Shown piece after piece: positions 1,926 to 53,900 of a DNA stretch of 64,000 nucleotides. A program made the translations under genes and the position numbers. The notes under the pieces are model-generated. The model saw nothing but the letters and a program-made list of their open reading frames with translations. It was not told the DNA's origin and did no database searches. Origin of the DNA: a virus; the IMG/VR virus record IMGVR_UViG_3300037882_003357, positions 6,255 through 70,254 of that record. One strand, 5' to 3'. Within the stretch, counting starts at the first letter, position 1. Every line of letters starts with the position of its first letter.

Positions 1926-3884
1926 ATGACAACTAAATCAACGTCTACCAAGCGTCGCAGTGCATCAAGTATTGCTGGGGCAAGATTAGCTGCATTAGAC
2001 GGTAAAACAAGAAAAAATGCTTCAACAATCCAAGCTCAGGTTGCATCCGGTGAGCTAGTTGAGCAGATGATAATAGAAATGAAGACTTATGGAGTAAATG
2101 AGTTTGGAGAAAGACTTGATTTTTCAGAACCTTGCTTTGAAGAGTGTTTGCGACTTGTGGGTGACTTACGTGTTGCAAGAGTTTACGTGAGCGGCTGCTC
2201 TCAAAGATTTAAGTCTGCAAGTGTCATTCAAGTTAACGCCTGGATGAGCCAGAGAGCAGGTCTTGCAACTCTTTTCAGTTGGCCTAAAGCAAGAATGCTT
2301 GAGTTGTTGCAGCCTCGCCAGCATCTACCAGTTTTGAAAAACTGGAGCAAAGTAAGTGGTATTACTACCATTACAAGAGAAATGAGAACTTCCACTACTA
2401 CTTATGATGTGGGGGTCGCTCCTGCAACTTTTACTCACGTCAACAGCCAAAAATCCGATTCTGAAATTGGGGCAGGAACAAGTAGTGTTGCCGTTACAGC
2501 ATCACTGCTAACTTGCGATGAAAGCTCTCAAAGCCCTCTGTCTGCACAGCAAGCGTTATTTAGACGCTTAGACGCAGGAAAAATTAAGACTCACCCTGTG
2601 AGGCTTACAGGAACTCCGTCAGGAGGTTCTGGCATCGAAAGTAGTATTGCAGACGCTGATTATGAGTTCATTCCTCACGTCATCTGTAACCACTGTGGTA
2701 AACTAGCATCACTTCACCCTTTCGGTGCTCTATTTAGACCTGAAATGGTGCGCAGCGAAGATGGTACCTTGCTAAAGAGTTTTTGCTATGAAGATGGAAT
2801 GCCCCGAAAATTATTTTGTCATGACCCTAATAATAGCTTTGAAACTGCGTTTGTAGGATGTGAGTATTGTGAACAAGAGCTTTCGGATGAATCGCGCTAC
2901 GAAGCAAGATTCTGGTGCGTCAAGAATAAAATCAGTCTTCAGGACTTTTTGCAAAATGTTGTTCCCGAACAGTGGGAGAAAAAGCAGCTCCGTGTAGGTC
3001 TCTGGGTGGGTGCGCTCTCCAGACAACGAACAAATATAGCTGCTGAGATAATGGCAGACTGCACACTTGAGAATATCTCTGACTTTTACCAGCAGCGTTG
3101 CGGAACACCTTCAACCTTTGCTGCAAACTGCATTACTTCAGAAGCTCTTATAAACGCCTTAGAACGCAAGTTTTTTACTAAGGATAGTTTCTATCAAACT
3201 CACAACTTAACAGACACTCCTGAGGCTGCTAGGCAGGATAGAATACGTTCTGTTAAACTCTGCGGTATTGACCAAGGAAGAAGCTCCAACTACTTTGCCG
3301 CGATTGAGTTTATTTTCGATAGTCATCTCCCTCCTAACCTTGCTTTCTCTACTGCCAAATGGAACATCCTAGCTTTAGAGTGTTTTCCTAGTTTTGCTAC
3401 TGGAGAGCTTCTTGCAAAATACGATATTGATGGAGGGTTTATTGACAACGAACCTTCTATAGCTTCCGCAGCTAAAATCTGTTCTGAAACAGGGCTGACA
3501 CTCGCTGACCAGCAAGCTAAACAAAAAGACGATTTCATCATTAAGCAGGTGCAAGACGGCGGGGAGTTCTTTGATTGCGTAAAAATCAAACATAAAAAGT
3601 TTGCTAAGCACCTTTTTGCATTGTTTTCTGGAGCTAACATAGCTGTTAATCGAGATTATTTAAGGTTTGCTGGAGGTAAGAGTAAGGAATCTGGTGACAT
3701 TTTTAAGCATCTTACGAGAGTTAGTTGGGACAGCGATTCAGGAGATTTAGTCAGGGCACCAGACAAAAGCGATGACATCTTTTTTAGCGCTGTTTTCTGC
3801 TGTGCAGCATTTGCAATGTATTTAGTTGACCCCTCACACATTGCTCTTAATAAAGCGGATTGGTCGTGGATGGACAGCTTTTAG
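1926..3884 (+). CDS. terL: terminase large subunit (lambda GpA-like)
   Basis: Degenerate Walker A (SGCSQRFKS), Walker B (LTCDE), GTP coupling motif, CNHC and CEYC zinc pairs, RNase H-like GIDQG and C-terminal DD. Confidence 0.85.
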   Translation: MTTKSTSTKRRSASSIAGARLAALDGKTRKNASTIQAQVASGELVEQMIIEMKTYGVNEFGERLDFSEPCFEECLRLVGDLRVARVYVSGCSQRFKSASVIQVNAWMSQRAGLATLFSWPKARMLELLQPRQHLPVLKNWSKVSGITTITREMRTSTTTYDVGVAPATFTHVNSQKSDSEIGAGTSSVAVTASLLTCDESSQSPLSAQQALFRRLDAGKIKTHPVRLTGTPSGGSGIESSIADADYEFIPHVICNHCGKLASLHPFGALFRPEMVRSEDGTLLKSFCYEDGMPRKLFCHDPNNSFETAFVGCEYCEQELSDESRYEARFWCVKNKISLQDFLQNVVPEQWEKKQLRVGLWVGALSRQRTNIAAEIMADCTLENISDFYQQRCGTPSTFAANCITSEALINALERKFFTKDSFYQTHNLTDTPEAARQDRIRSVKLCGIDQGRSSNYFAAIEFIFDSHLPPNLAFSTAKWNILALECFPSFATGELLAKYDIDGGFIDNEPSIASAAKICSETGLTLADQQAKQKDDFIIKQVQDGGEFFDCVKIKHKKFAKHLFALFSGANIAVNRDYLRFAGGKSKESGDIFKHLTRVSWDSDSGDLVRAPDKSDDIFFSAVFCCAAFAMYLVDPSHIALNKADWSWMDSF

Positions 3885-3974: not shown

Positions 3975-5096
3975 TTATTTTGCTTTGGGAGTCAACAAAT
4001 AATCCACACCGTCTAAGGTAATTGTTCTAGGCGCGGGAGCTTCACAAGGAGTCTCAGAGAAGCTCATAGAGCAACCTTCTTCTAGCTTAACCACGTTTCC
4101 TTCAGCTAAGACTGCTTCAAACTTGTCGTTATCACACCACAAGCCACCACCAAAGTCTGACGTAGGAAAAGTGAGAAGACTATATGAATTAGTACGTCCC
4201 TCCTTACGGTCAATTATGAAATTGGTTCCTTCTTCAAAAATTACTCTAACATTGGCAATGTCAACGTCTCCGTGAAGAACCTTGAAAGTGTCACCCACTT
4301 CAAATCTGTCGTAGAAAGGAACTGAAGGTTCTTTCTTTTTAGGAGTGGGAACAAGAAGACTCGCAAATCCTTTTTCAAAAGCTTCAATCACAAGTTCTTC
4401 TTTGTAGTGCCAGGAATAACCGTCAACACACGACTCTATACATAATGTTTCTCCTTCGATGTTAGGAGCATGAGTGCGTTCAATGAATGCTTTTCCTTCT
4501 GGAAGACCGTACCTTCCATACCCCACAAGCTCTTCCCAAGCTTCTCCGTCAGTGATGTAGAACTCAAATCCTGCTTTAAGAACATCTTTGAAGAGAGCAA
4601 TAGCTCCAGATTCCAAGTGCCCCTTGAACATAGCGTTCCAAACCCACAGACCATCAGAGAAATCTTCACTGCTCAGGCAGTAGTTCATTCTATCTTCTAC
4701 ATCTGTAGTGTCATGTACAACTGTTGTCACGTAGCCTATAGGCAGCTTTAAGTCACGATAAAGAGGACAATCTGAAATGTCCTTCAGGATGATGAACTTG
4801 TCCCCTATGTTGTAGCGTAGGTGAAAAGGTTTTTCTGTTTCTTCGAGGGCTTTTCCAAACAAGTATTCTTCGTAGACCCCTTGTTTTTCGTCGTAGTTAT
4901 AGACTGCCTTTCCACCTTCTAGTTTTGCTTCGATTATTTCACGCGCATCCGCAGTGTCGTAGTATTTGTCTGAAGCCCCAATGATAGGACTAATGTTGCC
5001 TCTTGCAGTTATTAAGAAAAAGCTTTGTTTGTCCGAATCATTTAAGTGTGTTTGAACTGCAAAAAGCGCGTCATGTAGAGAAATTTCAAGGGTCAT
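3975..5096 (-). CDS. hypothetical protein with an internally repeated domain
   Basis: 373 aa; PFHLRYNIGDKF...DFSDGLW resembles PFYDRFEVGDTF...DFGGGLW. Confidence 0.8.
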   Translation of the reverse strand: MTLEISLHDALFAVQTHLNDSDKQSFFLITARGNISPIIGASDKYYDTADAREIIEAKLEGGKAVYNYDEKQGVYEEYLFGKALEETEKPFHLRYNIGDKFIILKDISDCPLYRDLKLPIGYVTTVVHDTTDVEDRMNYCLSSEDFSDGLWVWNAMFKGHLESGAIALFKDVLKAGFEFYITDGEAWEELVGYGRYGLPEGKAFIERTHAPNIEGETLCIESCVDGYSWHYKEELVIEAFEKGFASLLVPTPKKKEPSVPFYDRFEVGDTFKVLHGDVDIANVRVIFEEGTNFIIDRKEGRTNSYSLLTFPTSDFGGGLWCDNDKFEAVLAEGNVVKLEEGCSMSFSETPCEAPAPRTITLDGVDYLLTPKAK

Positions 5097-7922: not shown

Positions 7923-8426
7923 TTATTTGTCGTCTTGGTAAACACTCAAAAAGACAGTGCCTTGGCTATATAGTGGCAAGATGTAATCTTCTAGGTCAGC
8001 GTTATACATACGCAAACAGCCAAGAGTGGGTACAAGCCTCTGGTACGGAGCAAAGGGGTCAGCAAGACCACTTCCTCCACCGTGTAGTCCTACGCCGCTA
8101 CGTCCATTAGTGTTTTCACCACTTTCTCGTCTGCTTACGTCGCAATCAATCATGTCGTAGAACATCCAGCCATAAGCACGTTCCATAGTGCCATTAGCCT
8201 TATCGTTGTAGAAAGTGCCTAGCTTGTAGACGCTAGGAGGAGTGTCGCCACCAACTAATCGCCAATTGGGGTCTTGCCCCATTGCAAGGCAAGGACGCTC
8301 CCAAAGAAGCTTTCCAGAGAAGGTGTAAGCCTTCATGGTTTCTGAAGTTGCATTGACAACCAGGTGGTAGTCGCCAGATTTGAATCCATAATCTCTGGGA
8401 TGAGTCCGTGGTGCGTGAAGTGCCAT
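7923..8426 (-). CDS. YkuD-family L,D-transpeptidase/peptidase, putative endolysin
   Basis: DTPPSVY and GLHGGG...TLGCLRM catalytic His/Cys motif; start moved to ATG 8426 (AAGGAA RBS), about 30 nt downstream of the late motif. Confidence 0.75.
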   Translation of the reverse strand: MALHAPRTHPRDYGFKSGDYHLVVNATSETMKAYTFSGKLLWERPCLAMGQDPNWRLVGGDTPPSVYKLGTFYNDKANGTMERAYGWMFYDMIDCDVSRRESGENTNGRSGVGLHGGGSGLADPFAPYQRLVPTLGCLRMYNADLEDYILPLYSQGTVFLSVYQDDK

Positions 8427-8456
8427 TTTGTTCCTTATGTGATATTCTTGGTACAT

Positions 8457-8467
8457 ATTCATTATCT
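8457..8467 (-). promoter_or_regulatory. putative late promoter motif AGATAATGAAT
   Basis: Minus-strand copy upstream of the endolysin candidate. Confidence 0.6.
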
Positions 8468-8523: not shown

Positions 8524-11307
8524 ATGACCAAGCTTTTACTTCCAAAGAAAATCAAGGCTGAGAATCTATTGTACGTAGTTAAGCTGCCAGAAGTGCCTAC
8601 TTGGATTGCCACTTACAAAGACAACACTGCAATGGTGTATAGCATTCCTGTGCTACCTAGTGATGATGAGCTAGACCAATGGCTTAACACACTTGTGCTT
8701 AGACTTGTGGAAGCAGCTATTTTTAGCAGACATGATGAAGAGCATTACCTTGAGCTATGCAAAAAGTTGCATAAGCCAAGCACTGCTTGGATGGAGTTCG
8801 TGGCTCACATGACCACTGAGCCTGGAGTTTGGGTGGCAGGGAAGAAAGGAGACTTCTCTTTCTCTAGCAGCGACACTAGCTTGTGGAAGCTTCCTGAAAT
8901 TGATGAGGAAACTAGAGAGACTAAGGAATATGACAAAATTACTGGAGCTGAGCTTGGAGATGCTTTAGGCTTTCCTGCACGTTTGCGCTATAAGCAGAAG
9001 CTACAAATCACCACGACAGATGACTTTGCTTTTGTTCAATACCTTCACGCATCTCACTACTATTGGATTAAGCCTTTAGACAAGAGCATTGGGGTGCTTC
9101 ATGCAGTTACGCAAAGCACTTTAGATTCCAGCATCACTGTAGTAGACGCTGCTGACCCTAGCGTGTTTGGTCTCATTGACGTGTGGACGCGCAGTTCTGA
9201 AGTGCTTGCTATTGACACTGAAACATTTGACGAAGATGAACCTAATGGCTGGAAAGCTCTTGTGGGCTGGTTAGGGAAGATTCGTTTGCTTCAGATTTAC
9301 TCTCCAGTGCTGGATACGACGCTTATTATTGACTTTGGAGGAAGGCATCAAAACGTTTCTGACAGTGTGCGTTTTCAGCTTGGTAGCTACATCCAAGAGC
9401 GGGTTGAAGGGAAGACTATTAAATTTCAGAACGCTTTGTTTGACCTGCTGTTCCTTGATTATCAGCTAGGACTGACTTTCTATGGTTGTCAGATTAAGGA
9501 TTCAATGCTCATGAGTAAATCACTTTGGGCAGGAATTGGAATGCTTGCTCACAGCTTAGAAGCAATTAGTACAAGGCTTGGGCTAGGCACTCCAGACAAG
9601 AGCTTGCAGAAGAGCGACTTCGGTGTGAGCTTAGTTCCTGCTCAGCTCAACTACGGTGCTGATGACACTAAAATCACTCACAACGCAGTGGAAGAGCTTG
9701 AGAAGCGACTTGACCGAGTAGGGGAGAATTGGGAGTTTGCAGCCATTCTGAATGACTATGTTCATTGCTGCCACATGATTCGTAAGCATGGAATGCCCAT
9801 CAGTTTGCAGACTTTGAGAGAAGTGGAAACCGTAACTCAACAGTACTACTCAAAGAAGGAAGCTCTGTGGCTAGAAGAAAGTGGCTTGTCTGCCACTGCT
9901 AGTTCTCAAGCCATTGTAGGGTGGTTAGATGGGCAAGGAATTAAGGTGACTAATGCTCAGGCAGGAACTCTTAAAGAACTTGCTCTCACTTTCCCTAAGC
10001 TGCAATCTCTTCTTGATGCTAAAGCAGCTTTCAAGCGCTTGGGCTACATCCAAGGACTTAGACGCGCAGAGGGTTATCGAGAAGACTCTTGCGTCACTCC
10101 TGGCATTCAAGTGCAAGCTCGTCAGTGTATGGGAAGGACGAGTCAAGGTGACTTGGTTAGAGGCAAGAACGTGGGTACAAACTGTCAAAACCCTGCGAAA
10201 GAATCTAAGCTGTATCCTGAACTTCCTGATATTCGACAAGTGTTCTGCGCTCCTCCCACTCACAAGCTGATTGGTATTGACTTAAGCAGCTCTCACCTTC
10301 GATTTGCTGTGCATTATTCAGGAGCCAAACTTGCTCTTGCCACCATGCAACCAGGAGAAGACATTCACCTCGCAAACGCTGCCTACATCATTAAATCTTG
10401 TGAGCCTATTGATAGCGCATTTTACAAGGTTCTCTGCTCTTACAAGCAGCTTCTACGCATTAAGGCCATTGGCCTTGACCATAGTGAGGAGCCTTCCGAA
10501 GGGATGCTTTTGTGGGCAAGTCAGCAGCTTATAAAGACTAAGTATTATACTGTCGAGGCTCTCCTTGAGAGCCTCTTCAAGACTGCTAAGTACTACCGGA
10601 ACATCTCAAAGACCGCCATCTATTTAGCAATCAATCTTGGAGGCGCTGCAAGGCTCCAGAACAGCTTGAAGCAAGTGGGAATCATTGTAGACCTTGAAAC
10701 CTGTAAGGTCATTCTTGCTGCTCTGTGGGAAGCAATACCTGAGATTAGAGAGTATGTGAAGCGTAAGCAGAAAGAAGTGAACACTACAACTAGCATTCTC
10801 AAGCCTGATGAAATCACTCTGCTAAGTCCTGACGAAGTTGATTGGGAAGAGCTTGACGAAGAACAAACTAAGGAGGCTCGTAAGAAGCCTGTGGAGTTTG
10901 CTAAGCTTCTCTGTGCTTCTGGATTCTCTCGCTACGTGCCGAAGTATTACCAAACAGGTTTCTACGGCAATCAGTACGTTAGCTGCTCCATCTCAGATGT
11001 GAGCGCTACAGAGTGGATGAGTAGCGAGGGAATCATGATGATGCGCTCTCAGATACGCTTTGTGCAGGAATACATCATTCCTAATGAATACAACATTGCA
11101 GACGAGACAGGTTATGCAAAGGTGTGGCTGGCAAACAACTGTCATGATGAAATCCTTGTCTGCGCTAAGGATGAACTAGCCGAGGTCTCTTATGATGTGC
11201 TAGAATCCATAATGAAAGAAGAGTGGCATCGAATGAATCCTTCAGTGGAAGGTATTGAGTCTACTAAAGAGAAAAGCATTGGATTAGCATGGAGCCAAAT
11301 CAAATGA
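8524..11307 (+). CDS. polA: family A DNA polymerase with 3'-5' exonuclease
   Basis: ExoI DTET, ExoII NALFD, ExoIII YGADD; GRT, NCQNP; motif A DLSSSHLR, motif B RNISKTAIY, motif C HDE. Confidence 0.9.
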   Translation: MTKLLLPKKIKAENLLYVVKLPEVPTWIATYKDNTAMVYSIPVLPSDDELDQWLNTLVLRLVEAAIFSRHDEEHYLELCKKLHKPSTAWMEFVAHMTTEPGVWVAGKKGDFSFSSSDTSLWKLPEIDEETRETKEYDKITGAELGDALGFPARLRYKQKLQITTTDDFAFVQYLHASHYYWIKPLDKSIGVLHAVTQSTLDSSITVVDAADPSVFGLIDVWTRSSEVLAIDTETFDEDEPNGWKALVGWLGKIRLLQIYSPVLDTTLIIDFGGRHQNVSDSVRFQLGSYIQERVEGKTIKFQNALFDLLFLDYQLGLTFYGCQIKDSMLMSKSLWAGIGMLAHSLEAISTRLGLGTPDKSLQKSDFGVSLVPAQLNYGADDTKITHNAVEELEKRLDRVGENWEFAAILNDYVHCCHMIRKHGMPISLQTLREVETVTQQYYSKKEALWLEESGLSATASSQAIVGWLDGQGIKVTNAQAGTLKELALTFPKLQSLLDAKAAFKRLGYIQGLRRAEGYREDSCVTPGIQVQARQCMGRTSQGDLVRGKNVGTNCQNPAKESKLYPELPDIRQVFCAPPTHKLIGIDLSSSHLRFAVHYSGAKLALATMQPGEDIHLANAAYIIKSCEPIDSAFYKVLCSYKQLLRIKAIGLDHSEEPSEGMLLWASQQLIKTKYYTVEALLESLFKTAKYYRNISKTAIYLAINLGGAARLQNSLKQVGIIVDLETCKVILAALWEAIPEIREYVKRKQKEVNTTTSILKPDEITLLSPDEVDWEELDEEQTKEARKKPVEFAKLLCASGFSRYVPKYYQTGFYGNQYVSCSISDVSATEWMSSEGIMMMRSQIRFVQEYIIPNEYNIADETGYAKVWLANNCHDEILVCAKDELAEVSYDVLESIMKEEWHRMNPSVEGIESTKEKSIGLAWSQIK

Positions 11308-31047: not shown

Positions 31048-34000
31048 TTGAAAAGTGATGATAAGATAATTGTTAATGAGAAAGAATTAATGCGTAATAT
31101 GCAATCACAACAAGAAACGAGTCTGCTAAGACAGTGTGAAACATTCAAATCCTTAATGGAAGATTGCCCTGTTTGTGGAGAGAGATGCAGCGGTAAACCT
31201 GTTAAGTGGGTACGTGAAGACGAAACACTAATTAATCGGGGCGTTTGGTGTTTTAAGGCAGACATGAACCATCCTCCAAATGGTTGGTCATTAAAGCAGA
31301 GCGTAAAAGGGTTCATCACGGCAACCGTGACGAGCGAAGAGGCTAAGACGCTCTGGGATACTATTGTCAAGGACGCAAGATGGGGGGCAAAATCATCAGG
31401 AGCTTCCCGCCATCCTCAAGGAATGGGCAAAAAGACTAAAGCAGTTTCAGCACAGTATTTCATTTCTCAGAAAGCAAAGAATGCTTTTGTGGAGCAGCTT
31501 GTGCAGTATGGGTATTATGCACATCGAAAAGATGCTGCGGCAGCAGACTTATTTGCTAGAGGACTCACTGAGGAGCAAATCATTAAGCACAAGATTTTTG
31601 ACCTTGAACAGCAAGGTCACACGCCGTCACGCATTGACGCAGAGCAGCGCACAACTGCGTTGGAGTGGTTAGGCCGTAAAGCGTTTCGCGGTTTGGAGAA
31701 AGGTGACACTTGGAAGCTTTCCCACAGACTCGATGGCTACTTAGTGCCTATTTTCAATTACAACCAGGAAATCACAGGATTCCAAATTCGTACTTACCCT
31801 CATGTGATTAAGCAAGCCGAAAGCAATCAGCGAGAAATGAAGCGACTGTTGAAAGAAGGCTACACGGTGCACAACAGCGAAGAGGAGATTGTAGAGCGCT
31901 TCAAGAACAAAGGTGTGTATGTTCCACCTAAGTACTTGTGGGCTAAGGGAATCACACAGGCAGGAAAGGAGGTCAGCTCACATTTGTCAATGGGACATGA
32001 ACTTCCCTTGCAGACATTGAAGGCTGCTGTGCCCTCTAAGACGCTTCTCTTCGTCGAAGGTACTTTGAAGCCTATTGTGGTTTACGAGAGGCTTGGAGGT
32101 CAATTTCATGTGCTTGGAGCAGCAGGTGGAAGCTTCACATCTAGTCGCACAATTCTACTACACACTCTTCAAGCTTTCGTGCAAGAATACGCCATTCAAA
32201 ACGTTGTGTGGCTTGCTGATGCTGGTTCCTACGCTCGTACTACCCAAGTAGCCGAGACTCAAGCTGAGTACCGAGAACGCAGAGAACGAGAGCTGCATCT
32301 GAAAGACTACACAGAAGATGCTTATGGACGAGTGCCTACGCTGAAGTCAGAAGCACGTAAGGCTGCATGGGCAATCATTAATGCTGAGATGCGCGAACTT
32401 AGCGGTAAGTGGGCAGATGTGAAAATCACTAAAGAGCGTCCCTACAAGCGTTCTAATGTGGTGAATAACATTGCCTATGCCAAAGACTTTGTAGAGCGAT
32501 GTGGACTGAGCTTCTCAGTTGCAGATTGGGGGCAGTTAGAAGTTGAGGGAGAGAAGGATTCTCTAGACCCTGACGTGGTAGACACTGGAAAGATTCTTGC
32601 TGCACTTCCTCCAAAGCTACAGCAAGTAGATGAGAATGCGCCATTTAAGCAAGCTAGACTGAATGCCTTTTACAACAACCACCACAGAACAGTTGCTTTT
32701 AACTTTCCCAGGCAGCAGTACAACACCGTTAAAATTGAGTCCAGTGACGAAATCGTATCTGCCATTGCTACTCATCCTGAAATAAAAATTAAGATGATTG
32801 GTACTCCAACAGGTATTGGAAAGAGTACTGTTGTGTCTTCAATTCCCTTTCAAGAAATGGGATACGACAAGCTTATTTACGTTTCTCAGACCACTCGCAA
32901 TCCTGTGACTGCTGAGATTGAAAGTTTATTTTATCCTGTGGAAGGTAGGCATGACGGTCTTGTGCGTGTAGAAGGGCAGCTAACTCCTAACGGTCATTAC
33001 GTAAACAGACGAGCTAATGGTAACGAAGAAAGACAAACAGAGCCTAACTGTGCAAGGTTTGCCGAGCATAATGCTGCTAGAGAAAATCACTTAGACACTC
33101 AGGGTATTTGCCATTCTTGCCCATTTTTGAAGGATTGCCGCAGCGGTGAGCATGAACACTACAATTACCTTTACCAGCGAGCGCAGTCTAGGCAGCATCC
33201 TATGCTACGCGCCACCACAGCGGTGCTGAATCCTGCGGACATTAACGAGAAAACTATGATTGTCTTTGATGAAAACTATCAGTGCGCTCCACCTTCTGAG
33301 GAAGTTAGTTTTTCTGCTGGCGACTTTGCGGAGTACATTAGTCTCATAGATAGAAAGTTTGGTGTTGAGCAGGGTGGTTTAGTGGTTGACAAATTGGGAA
33401 ACATCCAGCCAGGAAGCATTCCTTTTGAAATGTTGCCTAGCATTGCCGAGCAAGTAAATCAAGACCTCATCGAAAAGAGAAAGCGCTTAAGCCAGTGCAA
33501 CTCAAAACAGCGTATACTTCCCGCTAAGGCTGTAAAGTTCGTGAATTTATTGCTTGCCAAAACTCGATGGAACTTTAACGAGTATTCACAAACATTCACT
33601 GCGACCGTTCGGAATGAACACGTACTTTCATTAATTGAAAATGCTGGTACGGTCGTCTTAATGGACGCTACATGTATTCCTGAAATCTTCTGTGTTGAGT
33701 ACGGACTAAATCCTGAAGACTGTTTGTTCGTTACAGCGGACGATAAAGCCACTGAAAACGTTACTGTTGTTCCGCTATTAACAGAGCACTGGAATGGTCG
33801 TCAGTACAGCACTGACAAGCAGACGATTCTTGACAGGACGCGTAAAGGTGCTGAAGAACTTCACGGCGAGGGTAATGTAGGAACAATATCTTTTAAGGCT
33901 AATATTGCTCCAGGAGACATGAAATGGGGTGGTGAAAGCCGAGGAAGTAACCGCTTTGCTCAAAAGACTGCTGTTATAGCCGCAGGGCTTCCTTTCATAA

Positions 34001-34797
34001 ACATTGATGCCATGTCTAGACGCTACATGCTGCATAAGGAGAAGTATGAAGAACTTGGAATCTCTGAAGAAAACTACCAGAACACTCTTCTACATGCGGA
34101 GATTAAGCAAGGGATGGGAAGGCTTCGTGGCTTTCACCGTACAGAACCGCTTAAATTCTACATTTTGTGCAACGCCAGCTTCCCACAACTAGAAGCCGAA
34201 GGTTACAAAGTGGAGCCTGAGCTTCTTGCTGATTGGGGTGTTACGGAAGCCTACACTACTCAACTTGAAAGCATTGATGCTCTGATTCCTGCTCTTAAAA
34301 AGCTTTGCAGGGAAGGAGTAAAAATGACTCAACAGGCATTGGCGAATGCTGCGGATAAGAGCAGACAATCGGTCAGTAAACAGCTTAAAAAACTTGGCGT
34401 GACTCTTGCTGATTTGGCAGAGTTAGCTAAGCAAAGCGTTGCAAGTGCTCTTCCTGTCCCTGCTGCGAGATTTTTTGGTCTCACTCCTGAACTTAAAGAA
34501 GACATCAAGAAGCGTAAAGAGCGCGTAGAAGCAGGACAGATTGACGAACTTGCTCAGTACCAGGAACTTGCTTCACAAGCTGAGGTAGTGAGAGCATTAC
34601 AGAGCATTCAGGAGGGTTGGTATCCTAAAGGGATAAGGCGAACAGACTTGTTCTATCTTCAGACCACATTGCTCAGCAACATTACAAGAGACATAAGATT
34701 TGCAAGTGGTAGACAAAACATGAGTGTGTGGGATACAATCGTAGATGAATGGGAAACAGAACAAATTTTGGAAGATATTTATGCATGCACTGCATAA
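31048..34797 (+). CDS. primase-helicase fusion (Zn finger, TOPRIM, SF2 helicase, HTH); CyRepA1-like replication protein
   Basis: CPVCG..C; VEGTLKP, GAAGG and LADAG (TOPRIM); GTPTGIGKS; FDE; DAT; QGMGRLR; C-terminal TQQALA HTH. True start may be ATG 31090 or 31099. Confidence 0.8.
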   Translation: MKSDDKIIVNEKELMRNMQSQQETSLLRQCETFKSLMEDCPVCGERCSGKPVKWVREDETLINRGVWCFKADMNHPPNGWSLKQSVKGFITATVTSEEAKTLWDTIVKDARWGAKSSGASRHPQGMGKKTKAVSAQYFISQKAKNAFVEQLVQYGYYAHRKDAAAADLFARGLTEEQIIKHKIFDLEQQGHTPSRIDAEQRTTALEWLGRKAFRGLEKGDTWKLSHRLDGYLVPIFNYNQEITGFQIRTYPHVIKQAESNQREMKRLLKEGYTVHNSEEEIVERFKNKGVYVPPKYLWAKGITQAGKEVSSHLSMGHELPLQTLKAAVPSKTLLFVEGTLKPIVVYERLGGQFHVLGAAGGSFTSSRTILLHTLQAFVQEYAIQNVVWLADAGSYARTTQVAETQAEYRERRERELHLKDYTEDAYGRVPTLKSEARKAAWAIINAEMRELSGKWADVKITKERPYKRSNVVNNIAYAKDFVERCGLSFSVADWGQLEVEGEKDSLDPDVVDTGKILAALPPKLQQVDENAPFKQARLNAFYNNHHRTVAFNFPRQQYNTVKIESSDEIVSAIATHPEIKIKMIGTPTGIGKSTVVSSIPFQEMGYDKLIYVSQTTRNPVTAEIESLFYPVEGRHDGLVRVEGQLTPNGHYVNRRANGNEERQTEPNCARFAEHNAARENHLDTQGICHSCPFLKDCRSGEHEHYNYLYQRAQSRQHPMLRATTAVLNPADINEKTMIVFDENYQCAPPSEEVSFSAGDFAEYISLIDRKFGVEQGGLVVDKLGNIQPGSIPFEMLPSIAEQVNQDLIEKRKRLSQCNSKQRILPAKAVKFVNLLLAKTRWNFNEYSQTFTATVRNEHVLSLIENAGTVVLMDATCIPEIFCVEYGLNPEDCLFVTADDKATENVTVVPLLTEHWNGRQYSTDKQTILDRTRKGAEELHGEGNVGTISFKANIAPGDMKWGGESRGSNRFAQKTAVIAAGLPFINIDAMSRRYMLHKEKYEELGISEENYQNTLLHAEIKQGMGRLRGFHRTEPLKFYILCNASFPQLEAEGYKVEPELLADWGVTEAYTTQLESIDALIPALKKLCREGVKMTQQALANAADKSRQSVSKQLKKLGVTLADLAELAKQSVASALPVPAARFFGLTPELKEDIKKRKERVEAGQIDELAQYQELASQAEVVRALQSIQEGWYPKGIRRTDLFYLQTTLLSNITRDIRFASGRQNMSVWDTIVDEWETEQILEDIYACTA

Positions 34798-43586: not shown

Positions 43587-43868
43587 ATGAAACAAGCAAA
43601 CCCGAAGGCAACAATTGACAAGCATCTACTAGGTGACTTCATTAAGCAGCAAGTGCTTTCAGCATTCCTCACTGGCGCAGTGTATGCAAAAGGTGAAACA
43701 TTGGAGCAAGCACAAGATTCAAAGTCTTTAGAAGCAGCGCTAGATATGGTGGAAGAAGGACTCATTAAGCAGCTTCCCATGCTAAATGCGTTCGTAGTAT
43801 TATCTCTTCAAAGCAAAGGCTACAACGCCACACAAATCAACGAAGTCTACCAGGAGCTTCTTGCGTAA
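43587..43868 (+). CDS. hypothetical protein
   Basis: 93 aa, TAATG coupling to the RNR gene. Confidence 0.65.
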   Translation: MKQANPKATIDKHLLGDFIKQQVLSAFLTGAVYAKGETLEQAQDSKSLEAALDMVEEGLIKQLPMLNAFVVLSLQSKGYNATQINEVYQELLA

Positions 43869-45643
43869 TGACTTACGACTTAAGCACCTTTAAGACTAAC
43901 AAATCCACTCCTCCAGGACGCATTCGTAACTACTTGGCTGAGCAAGAAGCAGGGAAATCAAATCTCTTGCCCTTTAGCTGCAAGCTGCGTGTCTACAAGA
44001 ACAGTCTCATTGAAACTCTGATAGCCTCCAGCAAAGACCTTCGCTGGGGCGCTGGAGTGAAGCTCATTCTTGACCAGTACAAAGCAGAGTCTCCTGTTCC
44101 TAACAAGGTTAACTGGTTCTTTTATTTACCTGAATCACATCCCGATTACAATAAGCTAACAGAATATCAGAAAACGTTTGTGGTTAATAGTCGAGAATCC
44201 GAAGCTCTAAGCTACTATCTAATTGTTGTAAAAGACAGTATGGAGGATGCAAGGACTTCTCAAGGTGTTAGCATAGAACAAAGTTGGGAGCTTTTTTACG
44301 AATATATCTTAGATGGAAATGATGTAGAACTCCCCATTGTTATTGACTTATCTGCTCTTCGTCCATGCGGAACTACAAATTCTCAAGGACTTACAGCAAC
44401 AGGAGCAATCGGTGATGGCTCAGAAGAAAGCAACATCGCAAGCTTCTTTGCGATATATGATTACATCGCAAGATATGCAGCAGCCCCGTCCATTGGTGCG
44501 TTGTTGCAGCTCTTCGGAGTTCTCAATAACACTATTAGACGAGGGGGACTTTACAAAAACGGAATTATCACTTCCTCAATGTGGTATGAATCATCCGAAA
44601 TACACAATTACCTGGACTTTCCTTTAATTGAAATTCCTGGCTCCCACAAGAAAGGAATCAGCTTTGATAATGGAGTGCTGGCTGAGAAAGAACTTGTCAC
44701 AAAGATTCTCAAAAAAACTATGGAAGAAAGTCTCTTCCATGAGAAACGAGAAAAAGACTCGAACATCTACAAAAATGTTTGTATTGCGCTCGACATCGCA
44801 GATAATGGTACTTGCTTGCTTTGGAGAGTAAACCTTGGTCAGTGCTTAACGCCTCAAGACATCATTGCTGCGTATGTGGAAAGCACTTTACACCTTTGTG
44901 AGATTCACACCACTTGGAGACTTCTCAATCCTGAGAAAGCTCTAAACTCAGCTCCTTTAGAAGATGACCGTCAGATTGCCATTGATGTGATGGGACTTGC
45001 AAATTGTTTAAGAATTTGGGGAATCAATTATGAGCAGTTTAATATTGCTCTAAAGGATTTTCTAGGACAGTCTGACGGAGAGACTGTAAGTGTTCGCGCA
45101 CTAGAACTTGTCTACGCCCTTGCTGACGGTATGGAAACAGCTACTGAAGCAGCAGACCAGTACATGATTAAACGAGGACTTCCTCTACTTGAGCGCATCT
45201 TCTGTGTGGAACCTGCACAATCACATTCTTACGAGACAGTGGATGCTGAGGGCTTTACTACCTGCCGTGCTATCTTCCCTCCAGTAGGTAAGCGTGTGAC
45301 TCGCGTAAGTGACACTCAGAAGAACAAGACCTACAGACACGGCAATGTGGAAACCACTAAAGAAGTTAGTGGAGAGACCTATCAACTTACTTGTGAACTG
45401 TTTCAAAAGCTGATGAACCGCACAGGACGCGCTCACGGCATTAGCTATGACTTACGAGTTCCTGCTACTGAAGAATGGTTTGAAGACTTCGTGTTAGATT
45501 CCAGTCTCAAAGGTAAGTACTACACTGAAGTACAAAGTGCTGACCAGAGCTATCTTGAAAAGAAAGCGGGAAGTGCTAGTATGGAGGAACAGGAAGCTTG
45601 TAGCCTTGCAAACCCTGGAAGTTGTACTCTTTGTGAGGAATAG
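43868..45643 (+). CDS. ribonucleotide reductase catalytic subunit, cyanophage minimal clade (class O-slash)
   Basis: LPFSC, LRWGAGV, DSME..IEQSW, LS.LRP.G, RRGG.YKNG, NVC, GTCLL..VNLG, DRQ, C-terminal cysteines. Confidence 0.85.
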   Translation: MTYDLSTFKTNKSTPPGRIRNYLAEQEAGKSNLLPFSCKLRVYKNSLIETLIASSKDLRWGAGVKLILDQYKAESPVPNKVNWFFYLPESHPDYNKLTEYQKTFVVNSRESEALSYYLIVVKDSMEDARTSQGVSIEQSWELFYEYILDGNDVELPIVIDLSALRPCGTTNSQGLTATGAIGDGSEESNIASFFAIYDYIARYAAAPSIGALLQLFGVLNNTIRRGGLYKNGIITSSMWYESSEIHNYLDFPLIEIPGSHKKGISFDNGVLAEKELVTKILKKTMEESLFHEKREKDSNIYKNVCIALDIADNGTCLLWRVNLGQCLTPQDIIAAYVESTLHLCEIHTTWRLLNPEKALNSAPLEDDRQIAIDVMGLANCLRIWGINYEQFNIALKDFLGQSDGETVSVRALELVYALADGMETATEAADQYMIKRGLPLLERIFCVEPAQSHSYETVDAEGFTTCRAIFPPVGKRVTRVSDTQKNKTYRHGNVETTKEVSGETYQLTCELFQKLMNRTGRAHGISYDLRVPATEEWFEDFVLDSSLKGKYYTEVQSADQSYLEKKAGSASMEEQEACSLANPGSCTLCEE

Positions 45644-45645
45644 AA

Positions 45646-45939
45646 ATGGACGAACTCTTTTATGACACTCAACGCATGGGTGATGAGCGCATTGCTCGTC
45701 CTCCTGTGATTATTACTGTAGGTACTCCAGACCCCTTTGACAGGGCTAAATTAGAAAAATGGATGGAGAATATTTTACCCAACGAAAGTGTGTTAAAAAC
45801 ATTCCCAGCATACCGACAATTAAAGGAAGAAGATAATGACAAGCTACGCAACACTACTTCAGAAACGCTCAACCCAGGACGGCAAACCGACCTTCTGGAA
45901 ACCTCAGCCAATGAACCTGACTCCCTTAACGCTTTTTAA
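45646..45939 (+). CDS. hypothetical protein
   Basis: 97 aa with a GAGGA RBS; overlaps the next gene by about 100 nt. Confidence 0.45.
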   Translation: MDELFYDTQRMGDERIARPPVIITVGTPDPFDRAKLEKWMENILPNESVLKTFPAYRQLKEEDNDKLRNTTSETLNPGRQTDLLETSANEPDSLNAF

Positions 45940-46675
45940 TGATGAAGACATTCCAGTACTGCCTGAATGGGGAGTGGAGCAAGCAATTGAGCGCACTCTA
46001 GCTCTTGCTTGTGAGCTGGAGATTCCTGTGGGTGGCTGGTTAGGAGAAGCGAGCAGAAAAGAAAAGACTTTCTTTGATGAGAATCCTCTCGTTAAGCGCT
46101 TATGCCTCACCAACATCTCTGACGAAACCTTCCACGACCAAGGTGTGCAAGACGCAGCCAGAGTTTACCAAATAGGTCAGGAAGCAAAGCAAGAAGCAAT
46201 GCTCATCAAAGATGAGTGGTTCCACACTTGTAAAGCACATCCATTACAGAAAGCAGCATGGGCAGAGGTGGCAGTGTTCCTCATCTCCCTGGCTATCTTA
46301 CGTCTTGCTGGTGGAAGTGAACTAGCCGCCATGAGTGAGCAGATTAGCATGGATGAATCGCGGCATGTGGCAACCAATCGTGGTTTGCTACGAGACTTAG
46401 AGCTAGGGAATACTGCACCGCCACATGCTATTCAAAGGATTATAGACGACACTCTAGATTGGGTAACTCAAGGACTTTGCATTCCTGCTGATGAACTCTG
46501 CACGGACTTTGATTTCAATGCTGAGTTTCTTAAGGAAAGTAGCGAAGAGCTTGTGTGGAAAGGTAAAGCAGAAAGGCTAAACGACTTGCTCAGTTACCAA
46601 TCGCACGTGCTTCCATTTGAGGTCAGCAATATAAAGAATTATACGCGATTCTCTGAGGAGCTTGTGGTAGCTTAA
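45836..46675 (+). CDS. ferritin-like RNR small subunit (class O-slash type)
   Basis: LE.PVG, DETFH, AE..VF and DESRH di-metal ligands; no Tyr four residues after the first ExxH. Confidence 0.85.
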   Translation: MTSYATLLQKRSTQDGKPTFWKPQPMNLTPLTLFNDEDIPVLPEWGVEQAIERTLALACELEIPVGGWLGEASRKEKTFFDENPLVKRLCLTNISDETFHDQGVQDAARVYQIGQEAKQEAMLIKDEWFHTCKAHPLQKAAWAEVAVFLISLAILRLAGGSELAAMSEQISMDESRHVATNRGLLRDLELGNTAPPHAIQRIIDDTLDWVTQGLCIPADELCTDFDFNAEFLKESSEELVWKGKAERLNDLLSYQSHVLPFEVSNIKNYTRFSEELVVA

Positions 46676-47205: not shown

Positions 47206-47351
47206 GATATTTTTTACGTGCCAAAAGCTTTAGTAGTAAGCCTTTGAAGGTAGAAGCTTCTTCAAAAGAACACGCTGAAATACTTATGGGATTACTAGAC
47301 GGTGTTGGCTACTACGATTTCTCCATTGAGGAGCAGAAAGAAAATGAATAA
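47202..47351 (+). CDS. small hypothetical protein (not in ORF track)
   Basis: 49 aa, MRYFLRAKSF...; GGAGG RBS, overlaps both neighbours. Confidence 0.55.
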   Translation: MRYFLRAKSFSSKPLKVEASSKEHAEILMGLLDGVGYYDFSIEEQKENE

Positions 47352-48090
47352 GCCACTATCAGCAAAAGAACTTCTTGAGCTAGACCCGTATTTTCGAGTG
47401 CAGAAACTAGCTGCAATGGACAGTCCTCAGAAGGTGTGCTGGCTTGCCATGCACCAGGACTACAGCGAGAACTTTGTTCTAGATGAACTGCATCACCTAA
47501 ATAAGCCAGAAGCTACTTACGGTGAAAGCTTAGTACGAAACTGTTTAGAAAAAGGACATTATGGAATACTGGAACATCCACAACTTGTCATTGCCACCGC
47601 TGGATTCCCTCACAGTGTTATGCAGCAGCTTCGTACACACAGACACCTGAGCTTCGATTGCCAAAGCAGTAGGTACAGTGGTAAAAGATTTGCAGATGAC
47701 TCTAGAGAAATTGAGGAACTTATCTACCTACGTCCAGTGAATCAGGTCTACAGCGACCGACAAGGCTCTCCTTATACTTATACTCCTGAAATGCGACAAA
47801 GGCACCTTGCTAAGGCAATGAGAAGCCGCTGGGAGTATGTAGAGGACTTGAAGGAAGGTCTTGCTGAAGAACATGCAAGAGGGAACAACTTCTTCGATAT
47901 TCGGCAGAATTTTGTTGTAAGCGGCAACCTTCGTTCCTGGCTGCATATTCTTCAATTAAGAAATAAGCGGGACGTTCAACTTGAATGCCAAGCTTTCTGT
48001 GAAGGACTTCTACCAATTCTTAAAGATTGGACACCAGAAGTACTTGACTATTGGGAAACAAAAGGAACGAGGCTAAAGCTAACACCGTGA
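47344..48090 (+). CDS. thyX: flavin-dependent thymidylate synthase
   Basis: GHYGILEH, QLRTHRHLSFDCQSSRY, EEHARG, NLRSWLH.L.LR...VQLEC. Confidence 0.92.
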   Translation: MNKPLSAKELLELDPYFRVQKLAAMDSPQKVCWLAMHQDYSENFVLDELHHLNKPEATYGESLVRNCLEKGHYGILEHPQLVIATAGFPHSVMQQLRTHRHLSFDCQSSRYSGKRFADDSREIEELIYLRPVNQVYSDRQGSPYTYTPEMRQRHLAKAMRSRWEYVEDLKEGLAEEHARGNNFFDIRQNFVVSGNLRSWLHILQLRNKRDVQLECQAFCEGLLPILKDWTPEVLDYWETKGTRLKLTP

Positions 48091-50932: not shown

Positions 50933-53900
50933 TTGAGCATTAAAGAGACTGTTGAATTAAAAGTTATTGTCACTCCTGAGTTCTCTAGACTGACTAATCT
51001 TGAGCAGAAACTTTCTGCTGGGATGAAAACTCAATTAGACCTCGATGTTACTAAAGCCACTCAAAAGTGGGAAACTCTTAGAACAAATCTTTCTAGAGGA
51101 ATCTCCCCTAAGATTGATGTTAGCAGCTTACACAATTTCAACAGTGTCATTGACCTCAAACTACGTCATTGGGGAGTTCTTAAAGCTGAGTTAGAGCGGG
51201 GAATTGTCCCTAAGATTGATGTATCTAAGCTTTCTTCCACCCCCATAACTATTCCAGTAAAGATTGATTCTTCAAGTCTTCAGCGTGAATTGCGTCAGCT
51301 AAAACAAGCTGCAATTCTAGATGTGAAGATTAAGCAAGATGTGAATGTTCATCTAAGAGGTGAAACATCTAATGCGCTTTACCACGCGATGCGTAAAGCA
51401 TTGGAAAGTCAGAAAGCAAATCCTTTAGAAAAACTCATTGGACTTGCAGTAAGTCCTTTCAAGGCAGCAGCAGATGAGTTCTCTCGTAGCGCTTCACGAC
51501 AGTTCTATCGTGGCACAGGCTTTGGTGAAGGAGCGCAAAGTGCTGGACGAACTGTGGGTGATGTCACTGGAATGGTGGCTAAAAGCTATGGTGATGCGAT
51601 TGCTAAGAAATTATTCGACCTACGCGATTTTGATGCACTTATTGGAAAACTAAACACTGCTGCATACTCTTTTGGAAAAGCAGCAAGCTTTGAAAATGTC
51701 GCTCCTAAATTTAACAAGGCACAAGAAGATTCTGCAAAGTACTTCAAAGAAATTCTAAACGGTAATGGAGTGATGGAAGCTGCTGGAATGGCAGCAGAAG
51801 ACCTCGGTGACTCTTTAACTAAGCTCTACCAGAAACTCAAGTTAGCAGCAGACCCTAAAGAAACTCTCACAGTTATCACTCAAAGCAAAACAGATGGAAC
51901 AAAGCTGCCCAACTTTGCGTTAGATGAGCTTAATAAAATCCTTGTTGCGAACCAAGAGAAAGAGATTCAACGTGGTGCCGACGACTACAAGAAACGTGTA
52001 CAGACGGCTGTAAGAAAGTACGACAAAGAACTTGCAATAGCCATTGCTCAGCCTCTAGCGGATGTGATGCAAAACAGTTTAACCACTGCTGCAATTCGTC
52101 TCACACAGACGGCTCTACGTCCCGTCAGACTTGCGGGGATGCAAGTTGCTTATGACGATGCAATTGCAAACCTAAAATCGCTCACAGCGTTCATGGACGA
52201 CGCTGAGAAGGAATTGTCAGAGCAGGGACTAAAGACCATCTTTGCTTCTGGATTCAGTGATGGTGAGCAAGGCTGGCAGAAGCTTATTGCCGCCATAATT
52301 CCTAGCAGCCAAATCATCACTCCTAAACCTAATGCTCTTTATGGTGAAGGTCAAGGAGTCCAAGGACAGCGACCCACTGACGTAATCTCTGGAGTGCTGT
52401 CTAAAATCTTTGGTACCACAGGGAAAGATGCTTTCTCTAGTGATAACGTTGCAACTGAGCGTATCAGCAATGCATTATTTGGTTACAACAAAACACTTGT
52501 TACTTACCTTGCAGTGTTTGCTCGTCTGTTAGAACTGCAAGAGGGTGATGCCAGCAACATTCAGGGGGTAGGCTACTCCATTGGTAGTGAGTCTATGCGT
52601 CAGCTTTCTGAAGCTCTTCGTGCTTTAGGACTTCCTGAAATTCAAACTGCTGGTTTAGGATACTCTAGCTTAGGAACAACTGCAACTCCTCAAGGTAATT
52701 TAGGCAACAACCGCACAATTCTTCAAAACACAGATGCTTTTGGTGAGAATCTTTATCGCCTGAGCATGTTTGTGGACAAGAGCTTGCGGCAACTCTCATC
52801 TGAAAGCATTGTTCAAGGCGCAGGAAAGTTCGGCATTAAGTCACATGAACTTGAGTCTTACGCTGCTAATCCCAAAGTACTAGAAGAACTAGGAAAGCAT
52901 CTTCAAGGTGTGCTTCCTGCTGGTGTTGTGCAAGGCATGACGGAACCGCAGTTGAAAAGCACTTTCATGCATTTGATAAGTAGTGTTACTGCTCCTGAAA
53001 CATCAATTGCAAGAGCACTTGGTAACAAGAATAGTAAGATTCCTTTGCCCTTAGGAGATAAAGAAGAGCAGCAGGAATTTAGAAAAACAGAAGCTTATGA
53101 CCTTCCAGGCTTACTGGAACAGCTTAATGCGCTATATGAGCTACTTAAAGACAAGAATGCAGAGTTCCTTCCAGTAGCTAAAGACCGTAGAGGCCGCAAG
53201 GCTAAGGAACAACCAGACACCTCTGACCTTAGAGGACTCGCTAAAGAGATGAATAAGGCAGACTATCAGGAAATGCTGAAGTCTGCCACTCCTGCTCTTG
53301 CTCAAGCAGGGTACGCGCCTGAAGATGGTTCCATCAATGGTGTTCTCAATTCAATTGATGCTTTAGCAGAAAGCTTCAATCTGCTAGATACTGCGTTTGA
53401 AAAGCTTGACGCACAAGGACAGCTTTCAGAAGCTGATTTAGCAGAACTTATCAGTGAGTTTGCTAAGCTTGATTTAGCTACTGAAAATTTATACCCTGCA
53501 ATTCGCCAAATCAATTCCATTTTAGGCGACTTAGAAGTTGGCTGGCTTGATGCTGCCACTGCGATGAAGCAGCTTCAGAAGTTCATGACTTTTGAGGAAG
53601 TTAAGTTTGCTGACACTCAAGGACGTGGTGAAGGCTCTCTGCGCACTCAGACAATGACTGAGGCCAGCATTAACAAACTTGTCTATGCTTTAGATAAGAA
53701 TGGTCAAGGAGTGCTCCGTTCTGTTGAGCGAGTAGGAACTAAGAGCGGAAACTTTAATTCTGCCGTACGAGAAGCCGGAGGAGTCTCTCAAGCTGTTGAC
53801 GATGGTAGCCGTCAGCTTGAACTTAGCTTTCCAGCAAAGAGCAGTCAAAAACTTGCAACGTTAAGAGAAAAGATTGCTCAACGCTTTAATCTTTCTCTTG

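Follow-up and report, generated by a model that had tools for sequence, protein, structure and literature searches.

DNA polymerases of the Pol I type (family A) share a set of active-site residues, E710, Y766 and Q849 in Klenow, which are the textbook 'invariant' residues of these enzymes. E710 excludes 2'-OH sugars and contacts Y766, and Q849 reads the minor groove; a T7-type Tyr at the F762 position tolerates dideoxynucleoside triphosphates (ddNTPs). The sugar-selecting roles of E710, Y766 and F762 in Klenow are said to go back to Astatke in 1998 and to Tabor and Richardson in 1995. Accounts of how the sugar is selected, of pre-insertion gating and of minor-groove proofreading build on E710, Y766 and Q849, which also serve as guides in polymerase engineering. 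The family A DNA polymerase gene dealt with here (P0001; 8524..11307, plus strand; 927 amino acids, stop codon included, no internal stops) lies in a window of 64,000 nucleotides, corresponding to bases 6255-70254 of the 70,254-base virus record IMGVR_UViG_3300037882_003357. Judged from its sequence, it is a new member of a large family A branch with a rebuilt sugar and minor-groove pocket, and this branch was not found described in the literature searched.

The closest published framework is the classification of Czernecki et al. 2023 (PMC10201439). In the available part of that paper, PolAs fall into 19 clusters, the steric gate (position A2) and position B4 are highly conserved, and the Phe at B4 in the two DpoZ clusters (#18 and #19) is called a 'unique substitution'. 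The DpoZ enzymes are the only PolA groups with a B4 substitution (Tyr to Phe) in this text, with the Glu at A2 kept by implication, whereas P0001 has Asn at B4. Since A2 and B4 are described as highly conserved and the DpoZ Phe as unique, a clade combining His at A2 with Asn at B4 fits none of the 19 clusters as they are presented there. P0001 had no match at E <=0.01 to the NCBIfam DpoZ models NF038380 and NF038381, and no PurZ-type or adenylosuccinate-synthetase-like gene was detected among the open reading frames (ORFs) of the record that were scanned (50 with PHROGs, 30 of them also with Pfam).

A His at the gate is also present in the divPolA1 protein of Flavobacterium phage immuto_3-5A (gp1), where the motif reads DFDGYHLR. 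According to the available text of Yutin et al. 2024 (Virol J 21:200, PMC11348598), divPolA1 is an enzyme of ~440 amino acids with a truncated thumb and a dead exonuclease which accompanies a regular polymerase, and divPolA1 and divPolA2 are both thumb-truncated, exonuclease-dead accessory enzymes; the gate histidine of divPolA1 is not mentioned in that part of the paper. P0001 differs from both in its full thumb and intact exonuclease, and no other polymerase was detected in its record. Moreover, immuto gp1 showed no significant similarity to the hidden Markov model (HMM) of the His clade (no hit by default, 1.3 bits with the filters off), and therefore the gate His occurs also in a second, very distant group. 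As to full-length family A polymerases, the literature searched contained no paper describing a gate His, and the labels E710H, E615H, E658H, E480H, E2335H and E895H were not found there either. The available texts of Nasko 2018 (PMC6302109) and Keown 2022 (PMC9069017) do not mention positions 710 or 766, and the polymerase of Thermus phage Tt72 has, in the part of the paper at hand, the canonical Glu (PMC9324360).

An earlier note on this DNA had read motif A of the gene as DLSSSHLR, with His at the Klenow E710 gate. This was borne out by HMMER, by hhalign and by the codons themselves, and no Glu was placed at the gate. Motif A (10279..10302, plus strand) is encoded by GAC TTA AGC AGC TCT CAC CTT CGA and holds the catalytic D586, followed by His591 at the steric-gate position. 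To turn the His591 codon CAC (10294-10296) into either Glu codon takes two substitutions, which rules out a single base error as its source. HMMER placed IDLSSSHLR opposite DYSQIELR of Klenow, DFSQIELR of the Aquifex enzyme 8jrb and DYASMELV of the phage G20c enzyme 7r0k, and therefore His591 stands opposite Klenow E710.

The remaining correspondences were obtained with hhalign by comparing a 57-row alignment of the His clade with a 15-row canonical Glu-type alignment, E. coli PolA and T7 gp5 included; the probability was 100 in the global as well as in the local mode. The pairs obtained were R692/R754, K696/K758, Y700/F762, N704/Y766, L705/G767 and R538/R668. Motif B (RNISKTAIYLAINLGG; 10597..10644, plus strand) thus contains R692, K696, Y700 at the F762 position (10621-10623) and N704 at the Y766 position (10633-10635), just as the note had it with Tyr at 762 and NL in place of Y766-G767. 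The TGR-like motif MGRTS (10129..10143, plus strand) brings R538 opposite Klenow R668, and this Arg is invariant in the 8-row and the 120-row alignments described below. Motif C, CHDEI (11140..11154, plus strand), comprises H874, the catalytic D875 and E876, which were aligned by HMMER with the HDE of Klenow, 8jrb and 7r0k, and by hhalign as well.

The third part of the pocket, the motif 6 or helix Q region (SISDVSATEWMSSEGIMMMRSQ; 10987..11052, plus strand), is remodelled: it carries the clade-conserved W831 and E835 and is devoid of the Asn/Gln pair. In hhalign, S824 pairs with R841, A828 with N845 and M832 with Q849, and W831 and E835 fall at M848 and A852, a register which comes from profile alignment and is tentative at the level of single residues. 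The segment VSATEWMSSEG (residues 826-836), assigned to N845/Q849 by manual alignment in the note, indeed includes the hhalign partners A828 and M832. As N, Q, H, R and K are all absent from residues 820-840, the canonical N845/Q849 pair is absent whatever the register. Overall, the residues by which a family A polymerase is recognised, D586, H874-D875-E876 and the triphosphate-binding R692 and K696, are all present in P0001, and those tested as canonical for the Pol I active site (Glu at A2, Tyr or the DpoZ Phe at B4, N/Q in motif 6) are all missing.

The 3'-5' proofreading exonuclease domain spans residues ~224-400 (9193..9723, plus strand), aligned by hhalign with the Klenow exonuclease domain and by HMMER with 8jrb and NrnC. 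Its DEDDy signature is complete, with D231/E233 in ExoI (DTETF, residues 231-235, 9214-9228), N303/F306/D307 in ExoII (QNALFDL, residues 302-308, 9427-9447) and Y377/D381 in ExoIII (YGADD, residues 377-381, 9652-9666), all on the plus strand. The catalytic aspartates D586 and D875 and the exonuclease motifs are therefore intact, as had been claimed.

The fold was modelled with AlphaFold2 from an input alignment (A2) of 120 of the 124 His-type rows 550-1100 amino acids long; P0111, P0116, P0132 and P0144 had been omitted by hand with no criterion. The model of P0001 has a mean predicted local distance difference test score (pLDDT) of 91.3 and a predicted template modelling score (pTM) of 0.89. 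Foldseek returned 8jrb as the best match (E 1.5e-22) with apPOL next, and TMt values of 0.77-0.83 to Klenow, Bst, apPOL and Aquifex Pol I. In VIA-align, the Z scores were 31.3 for G20c Pol I (7r0k), 30.4 for the Bst ternary complex 4dqp (root-mean-square deviation (rmsd) 3.0, 555 residues), 29.6 for 8jrb and 27.5 for Klenow (1kfs); these matches cover model residues ~200-927 and are effectively tied across PolA structures. Strand 580-587 followed by helix 590-599 is consistent with motif A, helix 677-703 stops just short of N704, as the end of the O-helix should, helix 823-851 extends over the motif 6 region, and the thumb helices align with those of Klenow. On this predicted model, P0001 comprises all the parts of a family A polymerase: exonuclease, thumb, palm and fingers. 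A fold search of BFVD gave many phage PolAs with no clear named close relative, and the ESM Atlas search gave generic viral PolA clusters only.

Compared with the bacterial Pol I large fragment (Klenow, Bst, KlenTaq), P0001 has the same fold (VIA-align Z 27-30, rmsd ~3 A over 520-577 residues) and shares the catalytic Asp pair, HDE, the equivalents of R754/K758 and R668 and the DEDDy exonuclease motifs. It differs by E710 to His, F762 to Tyr, Y766 to Asn and G767 to Leu, by the loss of R841/N845/Q849, by an unrelated region of ~200 amino acids in place of the 5' nuclease domain, and by insertions of ~60 amino acids between motifs A and B and ~35 amino acids before motif 6. The Aquificae-like/apicoplast PolAs ('Hot Spring 1', cluster #8 of Czernecki et al. 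2023; 8jrb, apPOL 9qsc/5dku) supply with 8jrb the best PDB match both by sequence (profile E 6.9e-15) and by Foldseek. However, 8jrb has the canonical DFSQIELR and ties in VIA-align with other PolA structures, which indicates no special kinship. T7 gp5 (cluster #5) resembles P0001 in the Tyr at B3 and in motif B, where R-x3-K-T-x-I-Y is similar to RDNAKTFIY of T7, but its A2 residue is Glu (DASGLE) and its B4 residue Tyr, and it stands on the Glu side of the tree described below.

How widespread this residue set is was followed at several depths. A word-indexed search of 5.8 billion proteins found 7 close relatives with 44-81% identity, and in the resulting 8-row close family (alignment A1) H591, R692, K696, Y700, N704, W831, E835 and H874 are invariant down to 41% identity. 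Among 1.84 billion cluster representatives, a profile search found 2141 matches at E <=0.001, 404 of them at 1e-10 and 81 at 1e-30. For a residue census, the query and its best database relatives (the best 150 of the 2141 profile hits), 153 proteins altogether, were aligned to the family HMM. Of these, 135 have His in the gate column and 8 have Glu, always within a DYSQIELR-like motif; 10 are unaligned there. Position B4 aligned in 102 of the 135 His rows and is Asn in 101 of them; the exception, a Pro, is probably due to a truncation, and the other 33 rows did not align at B4. At B3, 99 His rows carry Tyr, 4 carry Phe and one carries Leu. The Trp/Glu pair of motif 6 was present in 83 of the 86 rows aligned in that region. 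Across 120 His-type rows with identity down to ~20%, K696, Y700, N704, W831, E835, H874 and D875 are conserved in at least 90%, as are D231, E233, N303 and F306 of the exonuclease, with Y377 and D381 invariant; the invariance of the gate His in this alignment is by construction, the rows having been chosen for it. Conservation of this extent goes beyond what chance would give.

The phylogenetic tree was built with IQ-TREE in the 'quick' mode (LG+G4, 69 rows, 642 columns) from 54 hand-picked proteins of the 135 with His, the Nodularia phage protein introduced below, 7 of the 8 Glu-type representatives (P0151 was omitted) and 7 named Glu-type proteins. A single branch, supported by an SH-aLRT of 99, lies between all 55 His rows and all 14 Glu rows, in a tree that is unrooted, has a small Glu sample and keeps the trait columns in. 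P0001, with all five clade markers (His at A2, Tyr at B3, Asn at B4 and the Trp and Glu of motif 6), nests within the His side, grouping with P0002, P0004, P0005, P0008, P0009, P0010, P0012, P0013, P0015 and P0017 and then with the Nodularia phage protein (support 85). The alignments thus support the view that the His/Tyr/Asn set together with Trp/Glu marks a deep, mostly uncultured clade of at least 135 clusters at 50% identity. On the 69-row tree, the switch from Glu-Tyr to His-Asn is, as far as these sequences go, a single event. The earlier proposal of co-varying changes defining a divergent subfamily accordingly stands as to the subfamily, a deep clade larger than had been supposed; as to the covariation it does not, the tree having one Glu-Tyr to His-Asn event and no repeated covariation.

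The clade also has cultured members. Among 50,697 deposited phage genomes, the best matches were nine Nodularia phage records with 23% identity. In Nodularia phage vB_NspS-kac65v151, gp069, annotated as 'DNA polymerase A', reads DLPAAHLAI, CKNVVYSGLNCG and ANVWLKTES. This Ravarandavirus protein is the nearest cultured relative and has the same residue set (23% identity over 79% of the query); it differs in its length of 778 amino acids, in the lack of the query's N-terminal region and in residing in a 146-kb siphovirus genome. Within 50 kb of annotation of the Nodularia phage there is a clamp-loader-like gene and no annotated primase. A pattern scan of 185,579 species genomes with a 14-row alignment (A3) gave 11 stretches, of which 3 were confirmed by tblastn: two in Symploca metagenome-assembled genomes and one in the complete chromosome of Chlorogloeopsis fritschii PCC 6912. 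The Chlorogloeopsis copy is a 690-amino-acid ORF with VSDLSSAHARI, AKPVFYGSLNCQG, FVWTSCEADIIK and AHDE. It is located downstream of a C-terminal fragment of a DnaB-like helicase and a TnpB-like ORF (L014 1-4956), a position that suggests an integrated element or a prophage remnant. All named clade members found have cyanobacterial links. In IMG/VR, tblastn confirmed none of the 108 pattern stretches that were matched in a scan with alignment A1.

Several look-alikes were rejected as His-type enzymes. Phormidium phage Pf-WMP4 gp19, a BFVD match, had no hit to the family HMM and no D-x4-[EH]-x-R, and has a Tyr at a B4-like spot; in the T5-like phage phiR2-01, Pseudanabaena phage Pam2, Yersinia phage P744 and Rhizobium phage RHph_Y1_11, the gate is occupied by Glu.

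Two homologues, P0006 and P0007, have intein-like inserts of ~350 amino acids in motif A, located between Leu and Ser (DL|C...N|C; equivalent to 10285-10287 of the window), which start with Cys and end with Asn-Cys. P0007 has a second insert at its N|CQN motif. Judged from its length of 1248 amino acids, with DLC and ~320 extra residues, P0011 probably carries an intein-like insert in motif A as well. Pfam gave only a weak LAGLIDADG_3 match on these inserts, in P0007. Insertion of inteins inside essential active sites is usual. In three other His-type proteins, P0052, P0091 and P0100, the polymerase forms the C-terminal part of chains 1667-1861 amino acids long, which may be replication fusions; in P0052 and P0091, matches to PDB sequences were confined to the exonuclease and polymerase part, with none for the N-terminal 1000 or more residues.

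Taken together, we consider it likely that P0001 is an active, proofreading, DNA-dependent family A polymerase, most likely the phage replicase, with an alternative His-Asn sugar pocket. In this clade, the canonical hydrogen-bonded pair of Glu (E710) and Tyr (Y766) under the sugar is replaced by His591 and Asn704, the F762 position is Tyr, as in T7, and motif 6, with R841/N845/Q849 lost, has the conserved Trp831 and Glu835 in their stead. In the proposed arrangement, the imidazole of His591, held by Asn704, would lie under C2' of the incoming nucleotide. Ribonucleotides would still be excluded, and ordinary DNA would be copied from ordinary deoxynucleoside triphosphates (dNTPs), supplied by ribonucleotide reductase (RNR)-like proteins and ThyX of the phage. 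By analogy with T7, the Tyr at B3 predicts a tolerance of dideoxynucleotides. The basic job of the enzyme is probably ordinary.

That the enzyme works, and probably as the replicase, is argued from the retention of the catalytic, triphosphate-binding, primer-terminus (R538) and proofreading residues, from the strong constraint on the family, from its being the only polymerase detected and from the apparent ability of the phage to make dNTPs. The genes in question are an RNR-alpha-like ORF (43868-45643; PHROG match 6e-11) and an RNR-beta-like ORF (45836-46675; PHROG match 5e-28), both very divergent and with no Pfam hit, and an adjoining clear match to ThyX (47302-48090). In six-frame searches of the whole 70-kb record, the P0001 gene was the only PolA, and no PolB was found. 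The intein-like inserts in the active site of homologues and the DnaB-like helicase fragment next to the Chlorogloeopsis copy also speak for this reading. As to the substrate, the gene content lends no support to an altered sugar or base selectivity, and the evidence leans towards an ordinary dNTP-using proofreading polymerase: the DEDDy exonuclease is intact, the RNR-like proteins and ThyX are present, no base-modification genes (PurZ-like, hydroxymethylase, glycosyltransferase, deazaguanine) were found among the scanned ORFs and the same pocket occurs in the cultured Nodularia phages.

Several points weigh against this. The score of P0001 is under the own threshold of Pfam DNA_pol_A; the clade is known from sequences and a predicted model, and the contact between His591 and Asn704 and its closeness to C2' are proposals; and the joint loss of Y766, N845 and Q849 exceeds a conservative swap, which makes unchanged selectivity and fidelity no safe default. 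Moreover, the six-frame searches of the record revealed no Prim-Pol, DnaB_C, Toprim_2, DNAG_N or D5_N, the UvrD-like helicase being the only helicase found, so the replicative role depends on the absence of alternatives in a record which may itself be incomplete.

Against PHROGs, P0001 was assigned to phrog_17 DNA polymerase (E 5e-44). Against Pfam DNA_pol_A (PF00476), it scored 32.6 bits with a cut-off of 34.3, with residues 568-624 around motif A as the sole stretch, and the same model gave 25 bits for the gene in the six-frame search of the record. This sub-threshold score is a sensitivity limit of the model; more typical members of the clade pass, e.g. P0044 with 129 bits. In NCBIfam, the nearest model was PRK14975.1-3, with 76 bits and a cut-off of 640.

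The alternative that survives best, although an unlikely one, is an altered sugar selectivity, whereby ribonucleotides or sugars modified at 2' or 3' would be accepted far better than by Pol I, and starting or extending with ribonucleoside triphosphates might partly replace a primase. All three residues that select the sugar in Klenow, E710, Y766 and F762, are different in P0001, the Tyr at the F762 position is the T7-type residue known for its tolerance of ddNTPs, and the record gave no match to families of primases or replicative helicases. However, His is as bulky as Glu and could equally block the 2'-OH, and an enzyme with an intact DEDDy exonuclease is supplied with dNTPs through the RNR-like proteins and ThyX. 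Another clade member adjoins a DnaB-like helicase fragment, and a primase may hide in the large unannotated ORFs, come from the host or lie off the record. Extended to the whole clade, the pocket would give all its members a different sugar rule, by which phages with no detectable primase could begin or bridge DNA synthesis by the polymerase alone, and the metal preference might shift owing to the His beside the catalytic aspartates; this broader idea is rather doubtful.

Equally doubtful is an accessory role in repair or gap filling, with the phage genome being copied by the host replisome. It would agree with the record, in which nothing recognisable as a primase, a DnaB-type helicase, a clamp or a clamp loader turned up, and with the accessory nature of the published His-bearing divPolA1 enzymes as given in the available text of PMC11348598. 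But the full thumb and intact exonuclease set P0001 apart from divPolA1 and divPolA2, divPolA1 has no significant similarity to the clade HMM, and this is the only polymerase detected in a phage that invests in dNTP synthesis.

Adaptation of the pocket to a non-canonical genome chemistry, i.e. a modified base or sugar in the virion DNA, is improbable. Motif 6, the minor-groove reader in Pol I, is rebuilt, and the only published B4 substitution, Phe, is that of the aminoadenine polymerases DpoZ (available part of PMC10201439). Nevertheless, base-modification genes were absent among the 50 scanned ORFs, ThyX points to ordinary deoxythymidine monophosphate (dTMP), and the clade occurs in very different genomes (a 70-kb phage, 146-kb Nodularia phages and cyanobacterial chromosomes), which is against a link to one modification. 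Finally, a decaying or inactive gene, for which the Pfam score and the missing textbook residues might be taken, is in practice excluded by a frame open over 927 codons, a confident AlphaFold2 model, conservation of the catalytic and the new residue set to ~20% identity over 120 rows and the intein-like inserts in the active site of homologues.

A large natural clade that kept the proofreading domain and replaced E710, Y766 and Q849 means that a second evolutionary solution exists for these positions. Nodularia phages and Chlorogloeopsis fritschii PCC 6912 are cultured sources of enzymes for testing it. Phages of this kind can be under-counted in surveys that search for canonical motifs or depend on the Pfam PolA model, P0001 itself being below the Pfam threshold. 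If the unlikely change of sugar rule or metal preference were true, the clade would offer a natural proofreading family A enzyme with a non-canonical substrate range.

Apart from the domains aligned with Pol I, P0001 has an N-terminal region of ~199 residues (8524..9120, plus strand) particular to the close family, with a pLDDT of 52-90. No match was found for residues 1-199 in Pfam, PHROGs or the PDB, the VIA-align rows covering 199-927. These ~200 residues occupy the place of the 5' nuclease of Pol I. Residues ~45-97 are an insertion that, within the close-family alignment, P0001 shares with P0002 alone. Short minus-strand frames inside the gene (e.g. 9925-10263 and 10620-10817) were dismissed as chance by-products of a long gene, and in a scan for promoters and terminators around the gene nothing exceeded the shuffled background. 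Immediately upstream and divergent (7923-8462, minus strand) is a gene for a YkuD-type L,D-transpeptidase domain protein.

The record belongs to a tailed phage whose genes for protease, major capsid, portal and tail lie between 12054 and ~41221; a large terminase was not recognised in the record. Its nuclease genes encode a PD-(D/E)XK exonuclease, an HNH endonuclease and an endonuclease VII-like protein, and the 6.2 kb to the left of the window contain PhoH, the UvrD-like helicase and a metallophosphoesterase. Three large ORFs, 1926-3884 (652 amino acids), 3975-5096 (373 amino acids) and 31048-34797 (1249 amino acids), gave no informative family match, and the first and the last had no PDB sequence match; for the 1249-amino-acid ORF there was one weak PHROG match, to a transcriptional regulator. 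The 'inverted terminal repeat' of the record consists of the first 99 bases of the record in exact reverse complement; it could be an assembly artefact, which makes the '100% complete' label of the record doubtful. At the right end, a giant frame of at least 4355 codons (window 50933-64000) runs off the record and has a tape-measure domain at residues ~2250-2880.

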